A DNA stretch of 64,000 nt, from the NCBI GenBank assembly GCA_964432675.1, contig CAYSOG010000001.1, positions 4,523 to 68,522 of the forward strand, read 5' to 3'. The notes beneath the pieces were generated by a model that worked only from the letters and a program-made list of their open reading frames with translations, was not told the DNA's origin and ran no database searches. Every line of letters starts with the position of its first letter. Position 1 is the stretch's first letter. This document shows positions 7,934-64,000 of the stretch, piece after piece. This DNA is from an uncultured Gammaproteobacteria bacterium (GTDB lineage Bacteria; Patescibacteriota; Microgenomatia; CAYSOG01). The translations under genes were made by a program, and so were the position numbers.

Positions 7934-7999
7934 AAATCTTCCCTTTTTGTCTATTCCTTTGCCCATCTGTTACAATATAACTAGATCAAAGAATATCAT

Positions 8000-46339: not shown

Positions 46340-46417
46340 AAAAATCTTACTGTGTATGTTACTATTCATCGCGCAACCTTAAAATCTAGCCTTAAATTGC
46401 TTATGGAGGATAGGTAG

Positions 46418-46621
46418 TTGCTCGTCACTAATGCCTCAGTGAAGGATGACCTAAAATTTGAGCATGAATTACTGACACAATTTTTATCCGTCACCGATGA
46501 CCTATACAGCAAAGTTAATGCACAACTCCGAATGCTTAATAGTCCACTAAAACTACGGCATCGAAATTTTGCTGTGATTAGTAGGCGATTAAATGAACTA
46601 GATCACGATTTAGCCGATTAA
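46418..46621 (+). CDS. Small hypothetical protein (67 aa, TTG start)
   Basis: ORF followed immediately by a strong intrinsic terminator. Confidence 0.3.
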   Translation: MLVTNASVKDDLKFEHELLTQFLSVTDDLYSKVNAQLRMLNSPLKLRHRNFAVISRRLNELDHDLAD

Positions 46622-46628
46622 TTGCTAG

Positions 46629-46657
46629 CCCCAGGAAAACAACCTGGGGCTTTTTCT
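46629..46657 (+). terminator. Intrinsic terminator (CCCCAGG-aaaacaa-CCTGGGG + CTTTTTCTT)
   Basis: 7-bp GC stem followed by a T-run. Confidence 0.7.
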
Positions 46658-46687
46658 TAAGCAAAACCTCTTACTCGCAGTAAGCCA

Positions 46688-55667: not shown

Positions 55668-56252
55668 ATGCTGAAAAAGATATCTGCTAGTATTCTTCTA
55701 TTTATAGTTTCTGGAATTATATTTGTCCCGATTGTTTCAGCTCATATCTTAAGGTCCGATGGTTCTATCGGTGCAGTATTACATATCGATCCAGAAGACG
55801 ATCCGATTGCTGGCCAACAATCTGGATTTTTCTTTGAGTTTAAGGATAAGCAAAATAAATTTACTCCCACCAATTGCGATTGTACATTTTCCATTAATGA
55901 ACAGAGCAAGGAAATTTATAGCCAGCCGTTGTTTGCGGGCAATGCTAATCCAAATTTAGAAAATGCATCGATATTTTATACGTTCCCCAAAAAAGACGTC
56001 TATGAAGTGGCGGTAGTTGGTAAGCCAATCCAAGCCAACGCTTTCCAGCCATTTACTCTACGATACGACCTGCGGGTAGATCGGGAAGTACAAAATGGCT
56101 ATACGTCCAATAACATCTTTTTCAGTGATCTAGAGCAGCTTAATAATAACTTAGGTGGTCATCTACCACATTATGTTGGTCTTGCGATTATTGTTATTGC
56201 GTTCCTTATATTTTTATATATTGATAGACGTAATCGTCCAAAAAATATATAA
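55668..56252 (+). CDS. Secreted His1 protein with C-terminal TM anchor (CopC/YtkA-like candidate copper-binding protein)
   Basis: Signal peptide ending VSA|HIL. CxC (NCDC). C-terminal TM (VGLAIIVIAFLIFLYI). Confidence 0.4.
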   Translation: MLKKISASILLFIVSGIIFVPIVSAHILRSDGSIGAVLHIDPEDDPIAGQQSGFFFEFKDKQNKFTPTNCDCTFSINEQSKEIYSQPLFAGNANPNLENASIFYTFPKKDVYEVAVVGKPIQANAFQPFTLRYDLRVDREVQNGYTSNNIFFSDLEQLNNNLGGHLPHYVGLAIIVIAFLIFLYIDRRNRPKNI

Positions 56253-56297
56253 CTATTAAAAACAAATATAAGTTAGGCAATTTTAAAAGGAGTAATT

Positions 56298-56951
56298 ATG
56301 CATCGGAAAATTATTACTGTTTCTGTCGTTACAATGGCGTTTCTGCTGTTGAGCGTTTCGGTTGCATCGGCACATATGGTTGTTAAACCTTCTACTGTTG
56401 GTATTGGCAGCGTCCAAAACTTTAGTTTGGGTGTACCAACTGAAAAGGGAGGCTCGACGGTTGCTGTTCGTTTGCTAGTTCCGGATGGCCTAGATGACGT
56501 AACACCAAATGTCAAACCCGGCTGGAGGATTGAAGTCAAGAAAAATGGTACAGGCGATAACTTACCAGTTACCGAAATTGATTGGAGTGGTGGCAGCATC
56601 CCATCAGGTCAGCGAGATGAGTTTTTATTTTCGGCCCAAGTCCCGGCGAACACGACAATATTGCAGTGGAAAGCCTACCAAATATACAACGATGGTAGTA
56701 CGGTTGCTTGGGACCAACCTCCAGTAAACAATGCTGCGTCACCCGCTGATGATAGCACGATGAAAAACGGATCTTATTCTACTACGCAGGTTGTTAATGA
56801 CCTGACTAGCAATGCAACCGGATCGGTTATGGCAAATGCTTCATCGGATAAAACAGTTAGTTATGTTGCTTGGGCAGCTCTTGCTATTGCCCTAGTATCA
56901 TTGGTGTTGGCGGTAAAGCCAATGATGAAGCCAAAAGACACCAACATCTAA
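56298..56951 (+). CDS. YcnI-like (DUF1775) copper-binding protein, C-terminal TM anchor
   Basis: Signal ending ASA|HMVV, then GIGSVQNFSLGVPTEKGGSTVAVRLLVPDGL..VKPGW....IDWSGG.I..GQRDEFLF, which matches the YcnI/DUF1775 architecture. Thr/Ser linker and TM. Confidence 0.7.
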   Translation: MHRKIITVSVVTMAFLLLSVSVASAHMVVKPSTVGIGSVQNFSLGVPTEKGGSTVAVRLLVPDGLDDVTPNVKPGWRIEVKKNGTGDNLPVTEIDWSGGSIPSGQRDEFLFSAQVPANTTILQWKAYQIYNDGSTVAWDQPPVNNAASPADDSTMKNGSYSTTQVVNDLTSNATGSVMANASSDKTVSYVAWAALAIALVSLVLAVKPMMKPKDTNI

Positions 56952-56981
56952 AGAGTTTGAAATTGCTATAGAAATGAAAAA

Positions 56982-57014
56982 TGGCTTGTACCTTTTGGGG
57001 TGCAAGCCATTTTC
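56982..57014 (+). terminator. Intrinsic terminator after YcnI-like gene
   Basis: TGGCTTGTACC-ttttgg-GGTGCAAGCCA followed by TTTTCAATAT. Confidence 0.6.
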
Positions 57015-57605
57015 AATATAAGACCTGGTAGTAAAACCACCAGGTCTCAAAAAAGGAGGTGAGAGTGTCCCTTGCGGGACAAAAGTATACTACCATATTA
57101 GTCGACAAATGTCAAACCTATAAGTAATAAATAATGATGTTCACTTTGCTCTGTTTTAGATACGTTTTGAGATTAGCCGAAGCCAGCATATATGCAATAA
57201 GTTAGAATTACTTATAAACCTATAGCAGAATATTAATGTCACCACTAATATACCAAAAGTTATCACTTTAAATTTACTATTGCCAATCTGCAAAGTAATT
57301 ATTCAAGTTGATATAGTTTAAAACTAGAGTGTATTTAATTGATAGAATTGACAGGGCATTTATGGTCCATGGTATTGTACACCCAGTACGGTTGCTCGGC
57401 TTAAGTAAGGTATCAATACTGAGCAAAATGCAATGATTTCCTTCCGATAATCCATTAGCAGGCTTACGGCCGTACAAATGTTTCGGAAAGCGCTTTTTCA
57501 CTGAAAAATGCGCTCCTGCCCTTTTTCGAAACATGTCATTATTTACTGTTCCAACTAATGCAAAACAACACTTGCCCATTTATTAATCAATCTATTATTT
57601 TTACT

Positions 57606-57654
57606 ACCGGTAACGAATACTCTCATGCAGAGGGATGTGTTACCGGTTTTTATT
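57606..57654 (+). promoter_or_regulatory. Terminator-like long hairpin (ACCGGTAAC...GTTACCGGT + T5) in leader about 45 nt upstream of TasA-like gene; candidate attenuator/riboregulator
   Basis: 9-bp perfect stem, 24-nt loop, then TTTTTATT. It sits between a roughly 650-bp non-coding region and the RBS GGGAGGTGAGGG. Confidence 0.5.
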
Positions 57655-57701
57655 GATCAAAAGTAAAGTCAAAAATTTCAATTGAAGGGAGGTGAGGGAA
57701 T

Positions 57702-58316
57702 ATAAATACAAAAATTGCATTAAGCGGCCTCTCCGTCGTTGCCTCACTAGCCCTCATGGGTGGTGCAACGTTTGCATTTTTTACTAGCACTGCAACCAGC
57801 ACTGCAAATGCTTTTTCATCAGGAACCCTAATATTACAGGTTAATGATAATAATGAAACAGCAGCAGCATCTGTTACTGCCTCATTTAATACGGGTAATA
57901 CTGGATTAAAACCGGGGGATACTACGTCTGGCTTCATCTCACTTGATAATACTGGATCAATTAATATAGATCATATTACTTTGGCAGTATCTCAGACGGC
58001 TAATAGCACCCCGAGTTTAGCAGACGTATTAAATGTTACGGCAGCAGGATTATCAACAAGTTCATCGTGTACTAGCCCAACAGATTTACTCGCAGGTTGG
58101 CAGGCACAATCAGGTTTAAGTGGACCCACAACGTTAACTAAATTAATAACCAAGGGTGAGTTTAACGCTGTACCAGGAGGTTTAACAGCAGGAGCAACGA
58201 AGTATCTTTGTATGACTTTCACGATGGATAGTAATGCAACAAATACTTACCAAGGTGCTACAACGACGGATACATTTAGCTTTATTGGGAAGCAAGATGC
58301 GTCGCAATTACCTTAG
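57702..58316 (+). CDS. TasA/camelysin-like secreted protein with SipW-cognate-type signal peptide (fibre subunit candidate 1)
   Basis: In-frame upstream of the first ATG (57756) the frame encodes NINTKIALSGLSVVASLAL-MGGATFAFFTSTATSTANAFSSGTL. This is a complete n/h-region plus the TasA-class motif, so initiation probably occurs at ATA/ATT (57702/57714) 5-17 nt after the RBS. Thr/Ser-rich. Confidence 0.6.
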   Translation: MNTKIALSGLSVVASLALMGGATFAFFTSTATSTANAFSSGTLILQVNDNNETAAASVTASFNTGNTGLKPGDTTSGFISLDNTGSINIDHITLAVSQTANSTPSLADVLNVTAAGLSTSSSCTSPTDLLAGWQAQSGLSGPTTLTKLITKGEFNAVPGGLTAGATKYLCMTFTMDSNATNTYQGATTTDTFSFIGKQDASQLP

Positions 58317-58396
58317 AAACGAAGAAGCTGGTAGTGGGGTAAAAATTGCTCCACTACCAGCCGAGAGTACATAAATAATTATAGTACACGAAAGCT

Positions 58397-58966
58397 ATGA
58401 GGAAAATAAAAACTTTAGCAAGAGTTGGGTTTAAGACAATACTTTTTGTGTTGATGCCGGTGGTGGTGTTCACATTAGTTACATCTAAAACAGCATTTAT
58501 CGGCGGTATTAAGTCATTTATTGTTATGACGGGATCAATGCAACCAACGGTGCCGGTTGGTAGTATTGCTTTTGTCCAAAAGCAGCGAGTATATGATATT
58601 GGCGATGTTGTAACCTATCAACACGGTGATGTTTCTATAACGCACCGAGTGGTTCAGAAATTCTATAAAGATGACGGTGTTTATTACCAAACAAAAGGGG
58701 ATGCAAACAATGTCGCTGACAGCGAGTTAGTGAAGCAGTCCGACATTATCGGCAAGGGCATATTCCAAATCCAATATGCCGGTAAAATTATTGTCTTTAT
58801 GAAAACGCTACAAGGATTTTTAAGCTTAGTTATTTTCCCCACCCTTTTATTTGTTGGATTCGAGCTATGGGGTATAAAAAATGAGATCGTCAAGGAAACT
58901 GAAAAAAGAGTATTGAAAAAAATGGAGGGCAATGGACAAACGATACTTGGCCTTAGCAATACTTAG
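58397..58966 (+). CDS. sipW: Signal peptidase I, archaeal/SipW type (S26B), copy 1
   Basis: N-terminal TM, catalytic box MTGSMQPTVPVGS (SGSMxPT) and the conserved His region. C-terminal TM. Confidence 0.8.
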   Translation: MRKIKTLARVGFKTILFVLMPVVVFTLVTSKTAFIGGIKSFIVMTGSMQPTVPVGSIAFVQKQRVYDIGDVVTYQHGDVSITHRVVQKFYKDDGVYYQTKGDANNVADSELVKQSDIIGKGIFQIQYAGKIIVFMKTLQGFLSLVIFPTLLFVGFELWGIKNEIVKETEKRVLKKMEGNGQTILGLSNT

Positions 58967-59603
58967 TATTCCAGCCGCTTCGATTATTGGCTTTGTGGCA
59001 ACACATTCTTTTTACAGCGGTGCTGCCAATTCAACGAGCAATGTCTTCGCTGCTGCCTCTCTTTTCCCAACACCGACACCACCTCCACTAGCCTCGACGT
59101 TAGTAATAAATGAAATACTACCTGCTTCTAGCTGTGTTGATGGAAATAAAACAGTTAATTGGATCGAACTTTGGAACGGGACAAGTGGCACAGTTAACTT
59201 GCAAGGTTTCAAGATTAGTGATGGCACAAATATAACGGATTTAGTAAATTCAAGTACAACTATAGCTTCTCACCAGTTTGCACTCATCGCAAAAGATGGA
59301 AGTATATTCAATCATGGTACAAGTAAAGGCAACAAATGTTATGCAGATAATAACGCGGTCACTGCTAATCTTGGTAATAGCTCGCCAGTGGTTTTTACAA
59401 CTGGCGTGTTAAGGCTACTCCAATCTGATGGAACTACAGTAATCGATAGGGTTCAATTTAACGGAACATTCGACGGTCAAAACCTTAGCGCACCAACTGA
59501 TCAATCTATCGAAAGAAAAATTACGGGTCAAGATTCAGCTATCGGCGACACATTTAATGGTCAAGACTTTGTTATACGGACGACACCAACACCGGGTCTA
59601 TAA
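58932..59603 (+). CDS. Lamin-tail-domain (LTD) protein with SipW-cognate-like signal
   Basis: N-terminus GFVATHSFYSGAANSTSNVFAAASL (TasA-class signal motif). LTD signature LVINEILPA....NWIELWNGTSGTVNLQGFKISDG. Confidence 0.6.
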   Translation: MDKRYLALAILSIPAASIIGFVATHSFYSGAANSTSNVFAAASLFPTPTPPPLASTLVINEILPASSCVDGNKTVNWIELWNGTSGTVNLQGFKISDGTNITDLVNSSTTIASHQFALIAKDGSIFNHGTSKGNKCYADNNAVTANLGNSSPVVFTTGVLRLLQSDGTTVIDRVQFNGTFDGQNLSAPTDQSIERKITGQDSAIGDTFNGQDFVIRTTPTPGL

Positions 59604-59608
59604 AAATT

Positions 59609-60919
59609 ATGAAAAAACGAATTATTCGATTAACTGCGCTTGTTATGATCATTGCAATAGTTTTTGCGACACATCAGAGTGAGTTTTTGGCGCTGTTTAA
59701 TCCGAAAACGGTTCGGGCATTTGGTGATTTGACGGTTGACTTTCATGTGCCAACAAATGCCCCGATTTTTACTATTACAAATATGGCACCGGGGCAAATG
59801 GAAACGAGAAATGTTGATGTCAATAATACTGGCAGTGTTGACCGCATGGTTTCGGTCAAAGGGGTTAAAACTTCTGAAACTGGCAATTTATCAAATGTTC
59901 TTTCAATCGTTATTAGCGAAGGCAGTACTGATTTATATGGTGGGACAGCGCTTGGGGGCCCAAAGCACTTATCAGACTTTTTTGCCGATAGCAGTAGTGC
60001 CAATGGCATAATGTTAAGTACTTTGCAAGCAGGACACCATACTACTTATATCTTTAAAGTAACGTTTGATTCGTCGGCGGGTAATGCCTATCAAAATAAA
60101 CAAGTAATTTTTGACTTAACGTTCGGTGAGGTAACTGGTAATAATGTTGTCATTAATGAAGTCTTTTATAATGTTGACGCAGTGCATGGCTTAGATTCTC
60201 CTGGCGATCGTGGGGTAACTGTCGGCGGTATCAGCACAAGCATTATCGGTAATGGTGCGGGATCGGTTAATAAGATATTTATTGATATTGACAACAATTG
60301 CTCGATCAACCAAGTGAACAATTCATCAACTACAACAACGATTAACCAGAATGCTAATACCGGTAATAATTCAGCCAATGGCAATACTGGAGGAACTACA
60401 ATTATTCAAACGGGATCGATTACGCAATCGGTTAGCGTTACTAACAAAGGGAATGTTAACAGCGCCCAGTGTTCACAAGGCAAAAAGTTAGGCCAAAACG
60501 ACGAATGGGTAGAGTTATTCAACCCCACGGACCATGATATTAGCCTGAAGAATTATAGCTTTGTTGATAATTCAGGCATTGTGACCAAAATAAATGGTAA
60601 CTTCACTATTAAGTCGCTGAAATTTGCCTTAGTTTCTAAAGACAATAGTACCTGGACTCATTGGTCAGTTCCTGCAGGCACGCTGAAGATTCCTTTGGGT
60701 CATCAAATCGGTGATGGATTAAATAATAGTGGTGACCATTTAACCCTTAATGATGCCGCCAATCACAATATTGATGCACTTTCATGGGGCAATGATACTA
60801 CTATATTTACCTTAAGCGGCGTTTTAGCCGGCCATTCGCTTTCGCGCAACGTGCCCGGCTTAGATACCGATTCGGCTACCGACTGGCACGATCAAAATCC
60901 ACCAACTCCAGGCAGTTAA
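59609..60919 (+). CDS. Membrane-anchored camelysin/TasA-like domain protein with C-terminal lamin-tail domain
   Basis: N-terminal TM, TasA-like beta-rich domain, Asn/Thr-rich linker, LTD (VVINEVFYNV...DEWVELFNPTDHDISLKNYSFVDNSG). Confidence 0.55.
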   Translation: MKKRIIRLTALVMIIAIVFATHQSEFLALFNPKTVRAFGDLTVDFHVPTNAPIFTITNMAPGQMETRNVDVNNTGSVDRMVSVKGVKTSETGNLSNVLSIVISEGSTDLYGGTALGGPKHLSDFFADSSSANGIMLSTLQAGHHTTYIFKVTFDSSAGNAYQNKQVIFDLTFGEVTGNNVVINEVFYNVDAVHGLDSPGDRGVTVGGISTSIIGNGAGSVNKIFIDIDNNCSINQVNNSSTTTTINQNANTGNNSANGNTGGTTIIQTGSITQSVSVTNKGNVNSAQCSQGKKLGQNDEWVELFNPTDHDISLKNYSFVDNSGIVTKINGNFTIKSLKFALVSKDNSTWTHWSVPAGTLKIPLGHQIGDGLNNSGDHLTLNDAANHNIDALSWGNDTTIFTLSGVLAGHSLSRNVPGLDTDSATDWHDQNPPTPGS

Positions 60920-60934
60920 TCTGCTATCATTATA

Positions 60935-61438
60935 GTGATGGATCACACGCACCGACGACTTATTTTTCTATTTGCATTTCTCCTGTTTGGTATTTTATTA
61001 GCAGTCGTGTTGTCATGGACTTTTGTTTCATCAGTTAATTTGTCTGCTAAGAAAACTCCCATTTTACAAGCCTCAGTATTACCAAAGCCAACGCAGCAAA
61101 CATCATTACCAGCACAACCCCGTGGTACTTTAACTGGTAACGTTACCATTGGCCCGAATTGCCCAGTAGAGCGTATCGGGCATCCTTGTACACCTTCGCC
61201 ACAAGCATACACTCGTTACGTTCTTCTCCTTTACACACAGGATAAAAGTACCGTCGTAAAGACCATAGTGCCAGACCAAAGAGGAGAGTTTACTGTTGGG
61301 ATTGACCCTGGAACATATATTTTAGATAGTGCAAACCAGGGAATTGGTTTTCATAGCAAAAATTTACCTCAAACGATTGTTATTATGCCAAACCAAATTG
61401 AAAGTGTAAGCATTGCCTTTGATACAGGTATCCGATAG
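60935..61438 (+). CDS. Hypothetical membrane-anchored protein
   Basis: N-terminal TM. 167 aa. No family recognised. Confidence 0.4.
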   Translation: MMDHTHRRLIFLFAFLLFGILLAVVLSWTFVSSVNLSAKKTPILQASVLPKPTQQTSLPAQPRGTLTGNVTIGPNCPVERIGHPCTPSPQAYTRYVLLLYTQDKSTVVKTIVPDQRGEFTVGIDPGTYILDSANQGIGFHSKNLPQTIVIMPNQIESVSIAFDTGIR

Positions 61439-61535
61439 CTGTGTGACAGAATTACTTGACTTGTTTTTCATCCAATTTCCCTAAGTACTCAGATATTGAT
61501 ATAGAAACTTGATAGAATGATATTAATTGTTCCAG

Positions 61536-61563
61536 TTGACAGTTTTGCTTGCTGTGCTATTAT
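61536..61563 (+). promoter_or_regulatory. Sigma70-like promoter (TTGACA-16 bp-TATTAT) for second TasA-like gene
   Basis: Consensus -35 with a good -10. The roughly 140-nt leader carries three CTGCCC-containing direct repeats before the RBS AAGGAGGTGG. Confidence 0.55.
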
Positions 61564-61706
61564 GGGTTTTGTTAGGGTTTTTGCATAAATATCTGCCAAC
61601 TGCCTCTACTTTCTTTACAAAATCCTTAAGCTTTATAATTTTCTGCCCCATATTGATATTCTGCCCGGTCTTACTGCCCACAATGCATTCGAAAGGAGGT
61701 GGAAGT

Positions 61707-62360
61707 ATGAGTAAACGGTTAGTGTTAAGTTATGGACTAATCGGCGCTGTGTTGCTCTTATTTAGCACTGCTACCTATGCGTATTTTAACGAAACCAGTA
61801 CTAGTAGCGGTAATATACTTGGTGCTAATACGCTAACAATGTCACTTTCAAACGATAATATTGCCTACGCAGACAATGTTACCGGAACGATTGGCAGTAA
61901 TGGACTAAATCCTGGTGATTTATTCAATGGAGATTTGTTCATTAAAAATAATGGTAATTCAAGTGCTAACCATCTCGATTTGAGCTTTAAGAATGCTGTT
62001 GTTAACGCATCGTCGGGTCCAGGAACTGGTACATCGCCAACCTTTTCTTCTGTATTAGAAGTTCAACAATTAATGTGGGATGCAGATGGCGATGGTGTAG
62101 CCGAAACGAATATGTTGCCAGCTACCTGCGATACAGCATCAACCTCAAACCATAATGGCATCTGCGACTTGCAAGATTTAGAAAATCTTGGTGTTTCCGG
62201 GGCTGCCGATGTACCGAATTTACTGTTTGAGGGTACGCAAAATGCTGGTCATAAACTCCATGTTGCAGGCAGGTTAAGTTCACTTGCGACAAATGTTCAT
62301 CAAGGTGATAGCGATACGTTGTCATTGACTATATTCATGGACCAAGGGCCGCATTCATAA
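61707..62360 (+). CDS. TasA/camelysin-like secreted protein with SipW-cognate-type signal peptide (fibre subunit candidate 2)
   Basis: ATG 7 nt after RBS AAGGAGGTGG. MSKRLVLSYGLIGAVLLLFSTATYAYFNETSTSSGNILGANTLTMSLS. The long ORF-track start at 61527 lacks an RBS and is rejected. Confidence 0.65.
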   Translation: MSKRLVLSYGLIGAVLLLFSTATYAYFNETSTSSGNILGANTLTMSLSNDNIAYADNVTGTIGSNGLNPGDLFNGDLFIKNNGNSSANHLDLSFKNAVVNASSGPGTGTSPTFSSVLEVQQLMWDADGDGVAETNMLPATCDTASTSNHNGICDLQDLENLGVSGAADVPNLLFEGTQNAGHKLHVAGRLSSLATNVHQGDSDTLSLTIFMDQGPHS

Positions 62361-62530
62361 GGAGTGTTATTCTGCGCCTAGCGAAGAATCTAGGCAAAGC
62401 TGTAGACCAATATCGGAAAACGCTTGCACTAGATCCTTCGCTAATCCTCCTTCTCCCGCTTACTGCAGGATACGGAAGGACAGACTACTCAGGATGACAA
62501 AAGTTACTTAGAATTACTAAGAAAAAATAT

Positions 62531-63100
62531 ATGAAAAAGATATTAGGTATTACCTTTGCATTACTAAAAACTGGACTGATGATTATTGTACTGGTTATGC
62601 TACCATTAATTGTCTTTACTTTCGTGACAGCAAAAACTTCGTTGTTTGCTACTGTTAGATCGTATGTTGTTGTTTCAGGCAGTATGGAACCCACAATACC
62701 GGTTGGCAGTATTGCTTTTATGATGCCATTTACCGACTATGACATAGGTGATGTCATTTCCTTTAAGCGTGGTAATGAAGTCATAACTCATCGTATTGTC
62801 CAAAAAATGGTCAAGCCAACAGGTACAGAGTACCAAACAAAAGGTGATGCAAATAAGCAGCCCGACGAACAGCTGGTAAATGAAGAACAGATTATCGGCA
62901 AGGGTGTGTTCCAGGTATTATATGCCGGTAGAATATTTTTCTTTCTTAAGTCACCATTAGGGTTTATTACTTGCATTTTTCTTCCGACCTTTAGTTATAT
63001 AGCGTTGGAAGTACATACAATTCAGCAGCTAACTTCAAGGCAAACCGAACAACGCCTTTTGCAAAAACTTGCCAAACAACCATGGCCCGCTACAGCTTAA
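62531..63100 (+). CDS. sipW: Signal peptidase I, archaeal/SipW type (S26B), copy 2
   Basis: VVSGSMEPTIPVGS catalytic box. Same architecture as copy 1. Confidence 0.8.
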   Translation: MKKILGITFALLKTGLMIIVLVMLPLIVFTFVTAKTSLFATVRSYVVVSGSMEPTIPVGSIAFMMPFTDYDIGDVISFKRGNEVITHRIVQKMVKPTGTEYQTKGDANKQPDEQLVNEEQIIGKGVFQVLYAGRIFFFLKSPLGFITCIFLPTFSYIALEVHTIQQLTSRQTEQRLLQKLAKQPWPATA

Positions 63101-63256
63101 TCGCGCTTGTTTTATTATCAGTTCTTGTCGCTACTTTTACGTTGTCGCATGCATACTTTAACTCCCAGAAAACATCTTCACAAAACTACTTCTCTGCATC
63201 AATGAATTTTCCCACACCAAAACCCTAGATTTGCCAAATGCTATACTATAAATGAC

Positions 63257-63685
63257 ATGAGTACCGGAATTATATTTGCCATTATTGCAGCAGCAGCATT
63301 TGGCTCAATTACAGTTTTTCAAAAATTAGCGGCAAATTATGTGTATTACTTTTTTGGTGCATTGCTTATATCTATAACTGCAATTGTCATAGAAATATGT
63401 TTTCTAATCCCAAGATTTAGGAACATAACACTTGTTTCCAATCCAAAAGGTATAATATTTGCAATCGCTGCAGGAGCTTGTGCAACAGTAATAGATGTAG
63501 CTTCAATTAAGGCATATTCTAGTGGTCTTCCGGTTTCTATTGGTGGTCCAATAATACTAGGAGGTAGTGTTGCTGTTGCTGCGGTTATCGGTTTATTTTT
63601 AGGCGAGTCACTGTCGCTTCTTAAATTTTTAGGATTGATACTTATTATTGCCGGCTCAGTAATTCTTGGAGGTATAAGTAAGTAG
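63257..63685 (+). CDS. Small DMT/EamA-like four-TM membrane protein
   Basis: 142 aa with four hydrophobic helices and Gly-rich packing motifs. Confidence 0.45.
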   Translation: MSTGIIFAIIAAAAFGSITVFQKLAANYVYYFFGALLISITAIVIEICFLIPRFRNITLVSNPKGIIFAIAAGACATVIDVASIKAYSSGLPVSIGGPIILGGSVAVAAVIGLFLGESLSLLKFLGLILIIAGSVILGGISK

Positions 63686-63736
63686 ATTGTAAATTGAATT
63701 GCAATATTGTAGAGTAGCAAGCACGAGGTGAGGAGA

Positions 63737-64000
63737 GTGCAGACTACAAAAGCAATGCCGTTTCAGGCAAGCCACTATAAAATCAATACCTATAATACCT
63801 GTCCACAGAAATACTTTTTTGAATATTTAGATGAAGATTTAGCGCCGATTAAGCGACAGATTAAGAAGCCTCGTCCAGAACTAGAAGTTGGCAATGTTGT
63901 TCATGTCACACTCTTTAATTATTTTAAGGAGCCAAAAGCAAATCGAACTTTTTTAACCCTCAAAAATATTCTTGCATCTACCTGGAAACCACCGCGCGGC
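63737..64000 (+). CDS. PD-(D/E)XK nuclease superfamily protein (RecB/Cas4-like N-terminus), partial at window end
   Basis: N-terminal ..FQASHYKINTYNTCPQKYFFEYL is the S-x-S...Y..CP.KY(Y/F)F.Y motif of PD-(D/E)XK/AddB-like nucleases. RBS GAGGTGAGGAG upstream. Confidence 0.45.
   Translation, partial: MQTTKAMPFQASHYKINTYNTCPQKYFFEYLDEDLAPIKRQIKKPRPELEVGNVVHVTLFNYFKEPKANRTFLTLKNILASTWKPPRG

Follow-up and report, generated by a model that had tools for sequence, protein, structure and literature searches.

The stretch of DNA analysed here, 64 kb long and hereafter called the window, comes from a Microgenomates/CPR-type bacterium (CPR, candidate phyla radiation) and carries a module of genes for surface fibres. 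The module opens with a TasA/camelysin-like gene (TasA-like gene 1; PF12389; 57702-58316, plus strand), which a 750-nt intergenic region (56952-57701) separates from a DUF1775/YcnI-like gene (56298-56951). It continues with genes for a SipW-like signal peptidase, two LTD-domain proteins and a SpaA-fold protein, and then with a second TasA-like gene (61707-62360) and a second SipW-like peptidase. The leader of TasA-like gene 1 contains a short motif, CTGCCC followed by A or G, and a terminator-like hairpin; the two recur together in about 15 very distant relatives and are probably an undescribed control switch for surface-fibre production. The element is absent from Rfam, and no description of it was found in the literature searched.

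The original prediction, made from the sequence of the window, described the region upstream of TasA-like gene 1 as a structured non-coding 5' leader, and this description holds. Individual hairpins fold far better than shuffled sequences, although the whole leader (57340-57700), folded in one piece, is not unusually stable (z = -1.1). The only long open reading frame (ORF) in the 750 nt lies on the minus strand (57277-57579, 100 aa); we rejected it as a gene or pseudogene because it has no Pfam match, shows no Shine-Dalgarno (SD) sequence by inspection and overlaps the promoter and hairpins, a database homology search not having been made. A sigma-70-type promoter is predicted on the plus strand at 57348-57378, with a -35 box TTGACA(G) (57348-53), a 19-nt spacer and an extended -10 TGgTATTGT (57370-78); an alternative on the same strand pairs TTGATA (57339-44) with TATGGT (57361-66) over a 16-nt spacer. 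Judging from these elements, transcription would start at about 57373-57386 and produce a 5' untranslated region (UTR) of ~320 nt.

Two hairpins lie downstream of this promoter. The first is a long imperfect inverted repeat on the plus strand, reported originally as about 60 nt long and corrected here to 57 nt at 57478-57534, with a minimum free energy (MFE) of -20.7 kcal/mol (z = -4.5). None of 200 shuffles folded as well, and the minus strand is weaker (-17.8, z = -2.4). Its arms, ATGTTTCGGAAAG (57478-57490) and CTTTTTCGAAACAT (57521-57534), are 12 nt long and 92% complementary, and they enclose the GCGC-U5/A5-GCGC inner hairpin of the earlier description, GCGCTTTTTCA/TGAAAAATGCGC (57490-57513). 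On the 3' side, an internal loop (bulge) is predicted to hold the first copy of the motif unpaired, with an unpaired probability of 1.0; this copy reads TCCTGCCC (57514-57521) or, shifted by one position, CCTGCCCT (57515-57522), with the core CTGCCC at 57516-57521 on the plus strand. A second plus-strand copy, TTGCCCAT (57572-57579), has a degenerate core variant and lies 28 nt upstream of the stem of the second hairpin.

This second hairpin (57606-57651; MFE -20.9, z = -5.0) resembles an intrinsic terminator. ACCGGTAAC (57606-14) pairs with GTTACCGGT (57639-47) in a perfect 9-bp outer stem (9-10 bp) that continues into an inner stem, and TTTTT (57647-57651) followed by ATT comes after it. The minus strand has no T-run, so the orientation is set as plus; a stable G+C-containing stem-loop with a U-tract on the transcribed strand, the definition of an intrinsic terminator, is thereby predicted at this position. 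The 9-bp stem and T5 claimed originally are real, and the distance from the end of the hairpin to the ribosome-binding site (RBS) GGGAGGTGAGGG is 35 nt rather than the 45 nt first given; the start codon lies ~50 nt downstream. In a window-wide survey, the hairpin with its T-run at 57647 was the only strong one of its kind not placed after a gene. The single other candidate for a leader terminator, at 46651, proved ordinary and follows a small SD-preceded ORF. The leader terminator lies 650 nt from the stop codon of the DUF1775 gene, which has terminators of its own at 56975-57047.

CTGCCC repeats were originally reported in the leaders of both TasA-like genes, and they are present in both, except that what had been read as a second TTCTGCCCC is actually TTCTGCCCG (61661). 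The second leader has a near-perfect promoter on the plus strand (61536-61563; TTGACA, 16-nt spacer, TGcTATTAT; 11/12 matches plus the extended -10) and five plus-strand copies in its 5' UTR: CTGCCA at 61593, CTGCCT at 61600, CTGCCCC at 61643, CTGCCCG at 61661 and CTGCCCA at 61674. The last of these ends 13 nt before the SD (61693-61702), and this leader contains no terminator hairpin. Outside the two TasA leaders, the only intergenic copy in the window is one TTGCCCAT at 7959, and the clustering in the two leaders is non-random. The heptamer YCTGCCC is not over-represented window-wide (7 found vs 10 expected). Given this and the ordinary fold of the leader as a whole, the finding is weak on the window alone.

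We collected 20 non-redundant leaders upstream of homologous genes. They came from species-representative genomes (L001-L008), from JGI metagenomes scanned with a 12-sequence alignment (L010-L021) and from contigs of individual homologues (L022-L033); the first TasA-like leader of the window is W1. These loci are distant from the window and from one another. The closest TasA homologue among 5.8 billion proteins is 53% identical, and the proteins of motif-bearing genomes are only 35-55% identical. No nucleotide similarity to the window leader was found in a direct comparison with 8 related loci or among the leaders collected, and among themselves just two pairs of leaders share short blocks. 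Alignment covariation is therefore impossible, and what remains comparable is the architecture and short motifs.

In an unbiased screen, all 6-8-mers were counted in 18 non-redundant leaders and compared with Markov shuffles. The top signals were the SD sequence (GGAGGTGA), CTGCCC(A) and the -35 box TTGACAG. CTGCCC occurred in 11 of the 18 leaders (0.6 expected), CTGCCCA in 9 (0.2 expected) and CCTGCCCA in 6 (0.02 expected). Counted as occurrences, the 18 non-window leaders (6.7 kb) hold 13 sense-strand copies of CTGCCC, where the rate in 94 kb of flanking DNA predicts 1.07 (Poisson P = 1.5e-10). Because CTGCCC had been proposed from the window alone, these leaders constitute an independent test, in which CTGCCC proved a genuine shared motif. 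A position-weight analysis confined the information to hCUGCCCR, positions -1 to +6. Two copies are present in W1, L002, L011, L018, L023, L024 and L032, and a more distant locus (L033, 37% identity) also has the motif. L003, L006 and L007 have their TasA homologue inside the operon; in these three loci the short spacer lacks the motif, and the leader of the first gene carries it together with the terminator-like hairpin. The second TasA-like genes of other loci have short leaders without the motif. The only two antisense copies belong to L013 and lie in the sense orientation of a divergent gene for a secreted surface-repeat protein; that protein is homologous to the middle of the protein encoded at 59609-60919 in the window, and L022 is arranged likewise. 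Non-conservation in orthologous regions had been named beforehand as grounds for doubt: we found the sequence of the long inverted repeat not to be conserved and the motif to be conserved.

The context of the motif is also shared. Within the same leaders its predicted unpaired probability is 0.57, compared with 0.27 for other GC-rich hexamers (Mann-Whitney p = 5e-5), and its flanks are more complementary to each other than shuffled flanks (z = -4.9), which places it in loops or bulges of hairpins with genome-specific stems. It occupies a hairpin loop in about half of the cases, with a different stem sequence in each genome. Variable arms around a conserved centre point to an RNA loop rather than a dimeric DNA operator, and the long inverted repeat of the window appears to be one of many differing hairpins that display the motif unpaired.

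Position relative to the terminator is the second shared feature. In 9 of the 11 leaders scored, a hairpin plus T-run follows the motif at a distance of 8-38 nt, and a both-strand scan of the collected DNA recovered the motif-terminator module in 13 other loci besides the window. In W1, L001, L002, L004, L005, L023 and L024, 35-90 nt separate the hairpin from the start codon, and within this interval no convincing promoter was visible by inspection in W1, L001, L004, L005, L023 and L024. In L024 and L029 the hairpin cannot be the terminator of the upstream gene, which is transcribed divergently. A TTGACA(G)/TAnnnT consensus promoter precedes the motif in most leaders, and the enriched TTGACAG is always upstream of it. 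Motif, orientation, predicted unpaired context, coupling to a terminator-like hairpin and upstream consensus promoter thus recur in distant genomes.

The original prediction had seen in this region the geometry of an attenuator or riboswitch expression platform. A terminator-like hairpin between predicted promoter and RBS is indeed there; neither an aptamer nor a competing antiterminator helix was detected. Rfam yielded no relevant family for the leader at E <= 10 (cmscan of 56000-64000), for the whole window at the gathering score or for 18 related loci, so that the known unrelated element that might have explained the leader otherwise did not appear. The weak matches in the region are just generic terminator hairpins at 56975-57090; among them is one to the EF3314_EF3315 small RNA (sRNA) family (56980-57090, minus strand), at 32.6 bits against a gathering threshold of 100 bits. 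The suggestion of control by c-di-GMP through a riboswitch is not supported, as no covariance-model match to GEMM-I, GEMM-II or another riboswitch was obtained in the window leader or the 18 related loci. An extended conserved aptamer was not found either: apart from the 7-8-nt motif, only the SD and the -35 box stood out as enriched words. Pairing between the 70 nt upstream of the terminator and its 5' arm, the expected signature of a competing antiterminator helix, was no better than in shuffles (11 leaders, combined z = -0.5). With no antiterminator helix, nothing conserved past the motif and no Rfam family, a trans-acting factor is favoured, and a self-contained riboswitch or T-box-like platform is unlikely.

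Several other roles for the motif were considered and rejected. Leader-peptide attenuation fails because the short ORFs that run from motif to terminator in W1 (57558-57656), L018, L023 and L024 all lack an SD, such ORFs are absent in L002, L004, L005 and L029, and the frame of the motif varies between leaders. Pairing of the motif with the SD, or with the conserved MGG codons in the signal-peptide sequence, would amount to only 4-5 bp with a mismatch, and no correlation across loci was seen. Spacing to -10-like hexamers is too inconsistent for a sigma-54, extracytoplasmic function (ECF) or -35 element. The ops consensus GGCGGTAGnnTG is absent from the leader, and the multiple A(N)GGA sites in loops, one overlapping the SD, that mark a CsrA/RsmA-type leader did not emerge from the k-mer screen, where GGA words were enriched solely as the SD itself.

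We propose, with confidence just short of even, that the leader works by attenuation/antitermination, in which a putative trans factor reads hCUGCCCR on the nascent RNA and controls read-through into the fibre genes. The consensus promoter (TTGACAG, extended -10) would start an mRNA with an untranslated leader of ~320 nt, which would display single-stranded hCUGCCCR twice, once in the bulge of the inverted repeat and once 28 nt before the terminator hairpin. By default, transcription would end at this hairpin. Read-through would be permitted once the putative factor, most probably a protein that binds RNA or associates with RNA polymerase, has bound the motif, either in the nascent RNA or in the non-template strand of the DNA. 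At the second TasA-like leader, where five copies reach to 13 nt from the SD and no terminator follows, the same factor may act on translation or stability, or may be loaded there for downstream sites. From the arrangement of these elements we infer where transcription starts, that it terminates at the hairpin, that a factor exists and what kind it is, and in which direction it regulates.

Some observations weigh against this proposal. In these hairpin-rich leaders, the hairpin-loop context of the motif is just marginally better than that of random positions (z = -2.0). Around one quarter of the leaders have no canonical motif: L010 has none, L006 and L015 have CTGCCT, and L019 has ATGCCCA. 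Of 15 modules, 8 have a -10-like TAnnnT 5-9 nt ahead of the hairpin, which leaves room for a proximal promoter. One mechanism does not cover everything, given the second leader of the window with its five copies and no terminator. Promoter, transcription start and termination are themselves predictions from sequence. Nor did a candidate regulator emerge: phmmer found no NusG/RfaH-like ORF in the 64-kb window, a Pfam scan of 30 window proteins gave no obvious RNA- or DNA-binding regulator, and all-against-all clustering of ORFs beside the loci returned fibre-module proteins only, with no conserved regulator gene.

By analogy, the layout most closely resembles factor-dependent antitermination of the kind exerted by LoaP on the dfn leader, and more loosely N/boxB, RfaH/ops and EAR. 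LoaP is a NusG paralogue, and in the leaders of the Bacillus polyketide operons dfn and mln a small hairpin with a conserved loop lies upstream of an intrinsic terminator (PMC12691694). As in the fibre leaders, the determinants are confined to the leader, there is no antiterminator helix, and a costly long operon is controlled (PMC12691694). The two differ in that the LoaP hairpin carries a UNCG tetraloop, whereas hCUGCCCR sits in variable loops or bulges and its hairpin context is not universal. They also differ in that the NusG paralogue cognate to a LoaP-type leader is usually encoded next to it, whereas none was found in the 64-kb window or beside the related loci, and in host, LoaP leaders belonging to Bacillota and hCUGCCCR leaders to CPR bacteria. 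RfaH with ops, and EAR RNA, mediate processive antitermination of pilus, capsule and biofilm-matrix operons. Like the motif described here, they involve a short orientation-specific element in the long leader of surface or biofilm operons and act during elongation. In contrast to it, ops is a 12-nt sequence, GGCGGTAGnnTG, read on non-template DNA, and EAR is a structured RNA of ~120 nt whose structure is absent here, with no Rfam match. A motif 8-38 nt from a single terminator suggests local rather than processive action.

Leaders governed by RNA-binding proteins offer a further comparison. In TRAP/trp, HutP/hut, PyrR, BglG-RAT and CsrA systems (e.g. pgaA), short single-stranded motifs near a terminator or SD, sometimes repeated and sometimes in loops, are read by a protein, as proposed here. 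Their sites are of GAG, UAG or GGA type, however, and the attenuators among them use competition between antiterminator and terminator, which is undetectable in the window leader. The tapA-sipW-tasA operon of Bacillus and calY/tasA of B. cereus belong to the same family (TasA/camelysin PF12389 with a SipW-type signal peptidase) and are likewise controlled upstream of the operon. In these Bacillus tasA systems DNA-binding repressors and activators (SinR, AbrB, RemA) act at the promoter, whereas the window element is downstream of the promoter, strand-specific and terminator-coupled. The leader is best classed as a form of attenuation/antitermination that uses a novel motif for recognition and is specific to the TasA-like fibre operons of CPR bacteria.

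The TAnnnT hexamers raise an alternative to which we give a small but real chance. The distal TTGACAG would then yield a leader-derived or independent small RNA of ~100-270 nt that ends at the hairpin and uses CUGCCCR as a single-stranded seed, and the TasA mRNA would start from a proximal promoter just upstream of the hairpin. The hairpin would serve as insulator terminator and 5'-terminal stabiliser, and the motif would lie near a -35 or activator position. Single-stranded C-rich seeds beside a terminator are typical of Gram-positive sRNAs. The frequency of the hexamers 5-9 nt before the hairpin base (TATTAT at 57593-98 in the window) exceeds the leader-wide rate (binomial P = 4e-4), and this drops to an estimated P of ~0.04 once local AT-richness is allowed for. 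Gaps from motif to hairpin cluster at ~22-38 nt. Spacing from motif to hexamer is 14-16 nt in 5 of 8 modules by manual count, but ranges over 14-24 nt overall, which is too variable for a -35/-10 pair. CTGCCC matches TTGACA at 3 of 6 positions, yet GCCC is invariant. Five loci (L002, L003, L006, L024, L032) have no TAnnnT hexamer, and in the second leader five copies lie downstream of a near-perfect promoter with no -10 element between them and the SD.

Improbable, in our judgement, is a post-transcriptional operator, in which CUGCCCR would be the site of a CsrA-like or global RNA-binding protein or of an endoribonuclease that controls translation or mRNA stability, and the terminator hairpin would act independently of the motif, as a constitutive attenuator of partial effect or as a stabiliser. 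Multiple copies at variable spacing, often in hairpin loops, suit such an operator, as do the copies that reach 13 nt from the SD in the second leader, the motif-bearing hairpins found just past the TasA1 stop in L008 and L023, and the separate SD-sequestering hairpins (CCTCC...GGAGG) of several leaders. Against this, the motif is 100-350 nt from the SD in most leaders, its distance is tightly coupled to the terminator and not to the RBS, and its pairing with the SD is poor by eye.

A DNA-level operator, at which a DNA-binding transcription factor of the fibre regulon would act as repressor roadblock or activator, is quite improbable. Matrix operons of Bacillus are repressor-controlled (SinR), the genes that carry CTGCCCR form a regulon-like set of TasA operons and a divergent surface-protein gene, and the second window leader has direct repeats. 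These points are outweighed for us by the strict strand bias (13 sense vs 2 antisense), by a motif that is non-palindromic, just 7-8 bp long and often single, and by its position downstream of a conserved promoter at a very variable distance (~+10 to ~+190). Flanking inverted repeats that vary around a conserved centre are the signature of an RNA loop, and the motif is predicted to be unpaired in RNA.

Very improbable is a tiny riboswitch or other ligand-sensing RNA, about as large as mini-ykkC/guanidine-II or preQ1-I, whose CUGCCCR loop core would control the adjacent terminator directly. A conserved loop on variable stems beside a terminator, and the two copies in seven leaders including W1, would fit this. 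Many leaders have a single copy, though, and the loop is inconstant in size and context (loop, bulge, even stem in L011); the motif is not self-complementary, nothing besides it is conserved, there is no Rfam match, and no alternative antiterminator pairing was seen. DNA operator, CsrA-like operator and mini-riboswitch all fit less well with the strand bias, the terminator coupling and the lack of a constant structure. That nothing here is functional, ordinary terminators and chance palindromes in an AT-rich spacer having met a coincidental CTGCCC, is strongly disfavoured: the ordinary whole-leader fold and the lack of window-wide enrichment and of nucleotide conservation with relatives speak for it, and against it stand the strand-specific cross-genome enrichment (P ~1e-10), the coupling of motif to terminator, the z of -4.5 or below for each hairpin, and a terminator 650 nt from an upstream stop whose gene is already served by its own.

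Several further features accompany the leaders. The decamer TTGATAGAAT abuts the -35 box of the first leader (57339-57348, plus strand) and has one other exact copy, at 61509-61518 in the second leader; these are the only two perfect matches in 64 kb, each just upstream of the -35 box of a TasA-like gene. By rough estimate the chance of a shared 10-mer between two ~300-nt regions is ~0.2, which makes the match suggestive only: it could mark a transcription-factor or UP-like site or have arisen by chance. A half-repeat, TTGATATAGAA, adjoins the copy in the second leader. In L004, L008, L010, L019, L022 and L029, a separate hairpin within the last 20-70 nt before the start pairs CCCTCC or CCTCC with the SD (for example tttCCTCCgataaGGAGGtg in L029), and in L022 the terminator stem of the minus-strand module itself contains the SD; this suggests an extra, translation-level layer of control. 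A GC-rich hairpin without a T-run follows the TasA1 stop in the window (58327-58361) and in all seven other loci whose spacer was inspected (L001, L002, L005, L008, L023, L024, L027), with CTGCC in its loop in L008 and L023. It may stabilise the mRNA or, by terminating transcription in part, set the ratio of the subunits.

Upstream of the leader, a candidate small RNA lies on the minus strand (56972-57115), convergent with the DUF1775 gene. Its candidate promoter consists of TTGACA (57115-10), a 17-nt spacer and TAGTAT (57092-87) with an upstream TG. The ~105-nt RNA would fold into three hairpins (MFE -50.8, z = -9.0) and end at a bidirectional U5 terminator shared with the upstream gene; it is the source of the weak EF3314_EF3315 match. 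Between hairpins 1 and 2 it exposes an anti-SD-like stretch, CUCUCACCUCCUUUUUU, which, from its sequence, could pair over ~14 nt with the RBS region of TasA1. On the plus strand, the same DNA (57052-57127) contains a near-copy of the TasA RBS (AAAGGAGGTGAG) followed after 1 nt by GTG at 57065 and a 20-codon ORF (MSLAGQKYTTILVDKCQTYK); an in-frame upstream GTG at 57059 is the start given for this ORF in the ORF list (22 aa). The plus-strand ORF is a candidate alternative reading of the DNA of the candidate small RNA.

Gene starts at the locus need some care. TasA-like gene 1 has a probable non-canonical ATA start (57702-57704): homologues begin MNTKIALS and the window reads I(ATA)NTKIALS (ATA-AAT-ACA-AAA), 9 nt past the GGAGG of its SD GGGAGGTGAGGG (57687-57698, plus strand). 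A start at the first ATG (57756) would leave the protein without its signal peptide, and this truncated form is the one matched by P0001 (186 aa), the sole identical protein in public databases. The ATA may be real, as a rare start codon or as a mutation that inactivates the gene, or it may be an error of sequencing. For the second TasA-like gene, the true start is ATG 61707, after the SD at 61693-61702, and the listed 277-aa ORF (61527-62360) is an artefactual 5' extension across the leader. The small ORF before the terminator at 46651 is unannotated, ~68 codons long within 46400-46660, with an SD of its own (GGAGGATAGGTAG-TTG); it ends at 46620 and a strong terminator (46630-46655) comes after it. 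The gene that follows probably starts at ATG 46713, after its own promoter, and not at TTG 46688 of the ORF list.

As for the organisms concerned, the nearest relatives of the window TasA-like protein come from metagenome-assembled genomes (MAGs) of Daviesbacteria, Levyibacteriota and Roizmanbacteria and from MAGs labelled 'uncultured Gammaproteobacteria'. Several MAGs with the closest fibre loci (L001, L002, L003, L006, L008) bear this title, which is probably a taxonomic mislabel, as their gene content and closest relatives look Microgenomates/CPR-like.

Taking the related loci together, we suggest, tentatively, that hCUGCCCR plus terminator is a previously undescribed antitermination/attenuation system that extends across the Microgenomates/CPR lineage. 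Its trans component would be a new factor that binds RNA or modifies RNA polymerase and so turns on TasA-like operons, along with associated secreted repeat proteins. If true, this would be the first defined regulon and the first elongation-level regulatory switch in these uncultured, reduced-genome organisms, and factor-dependent antitermination/attenuation systems, few of which are known, would gain a new recognition element. Gene regulation in CPR bacteria is hardly known, given their tiny genomes, few recognisable regulators and lack of cultures. The motif could serve as bait for its regulator, and a search of thousands of MAGs with it as the pattern could delimit the regulon; its pairing with a terminator offers a testable handle on when episymbiont-type cells build their surface fibres.

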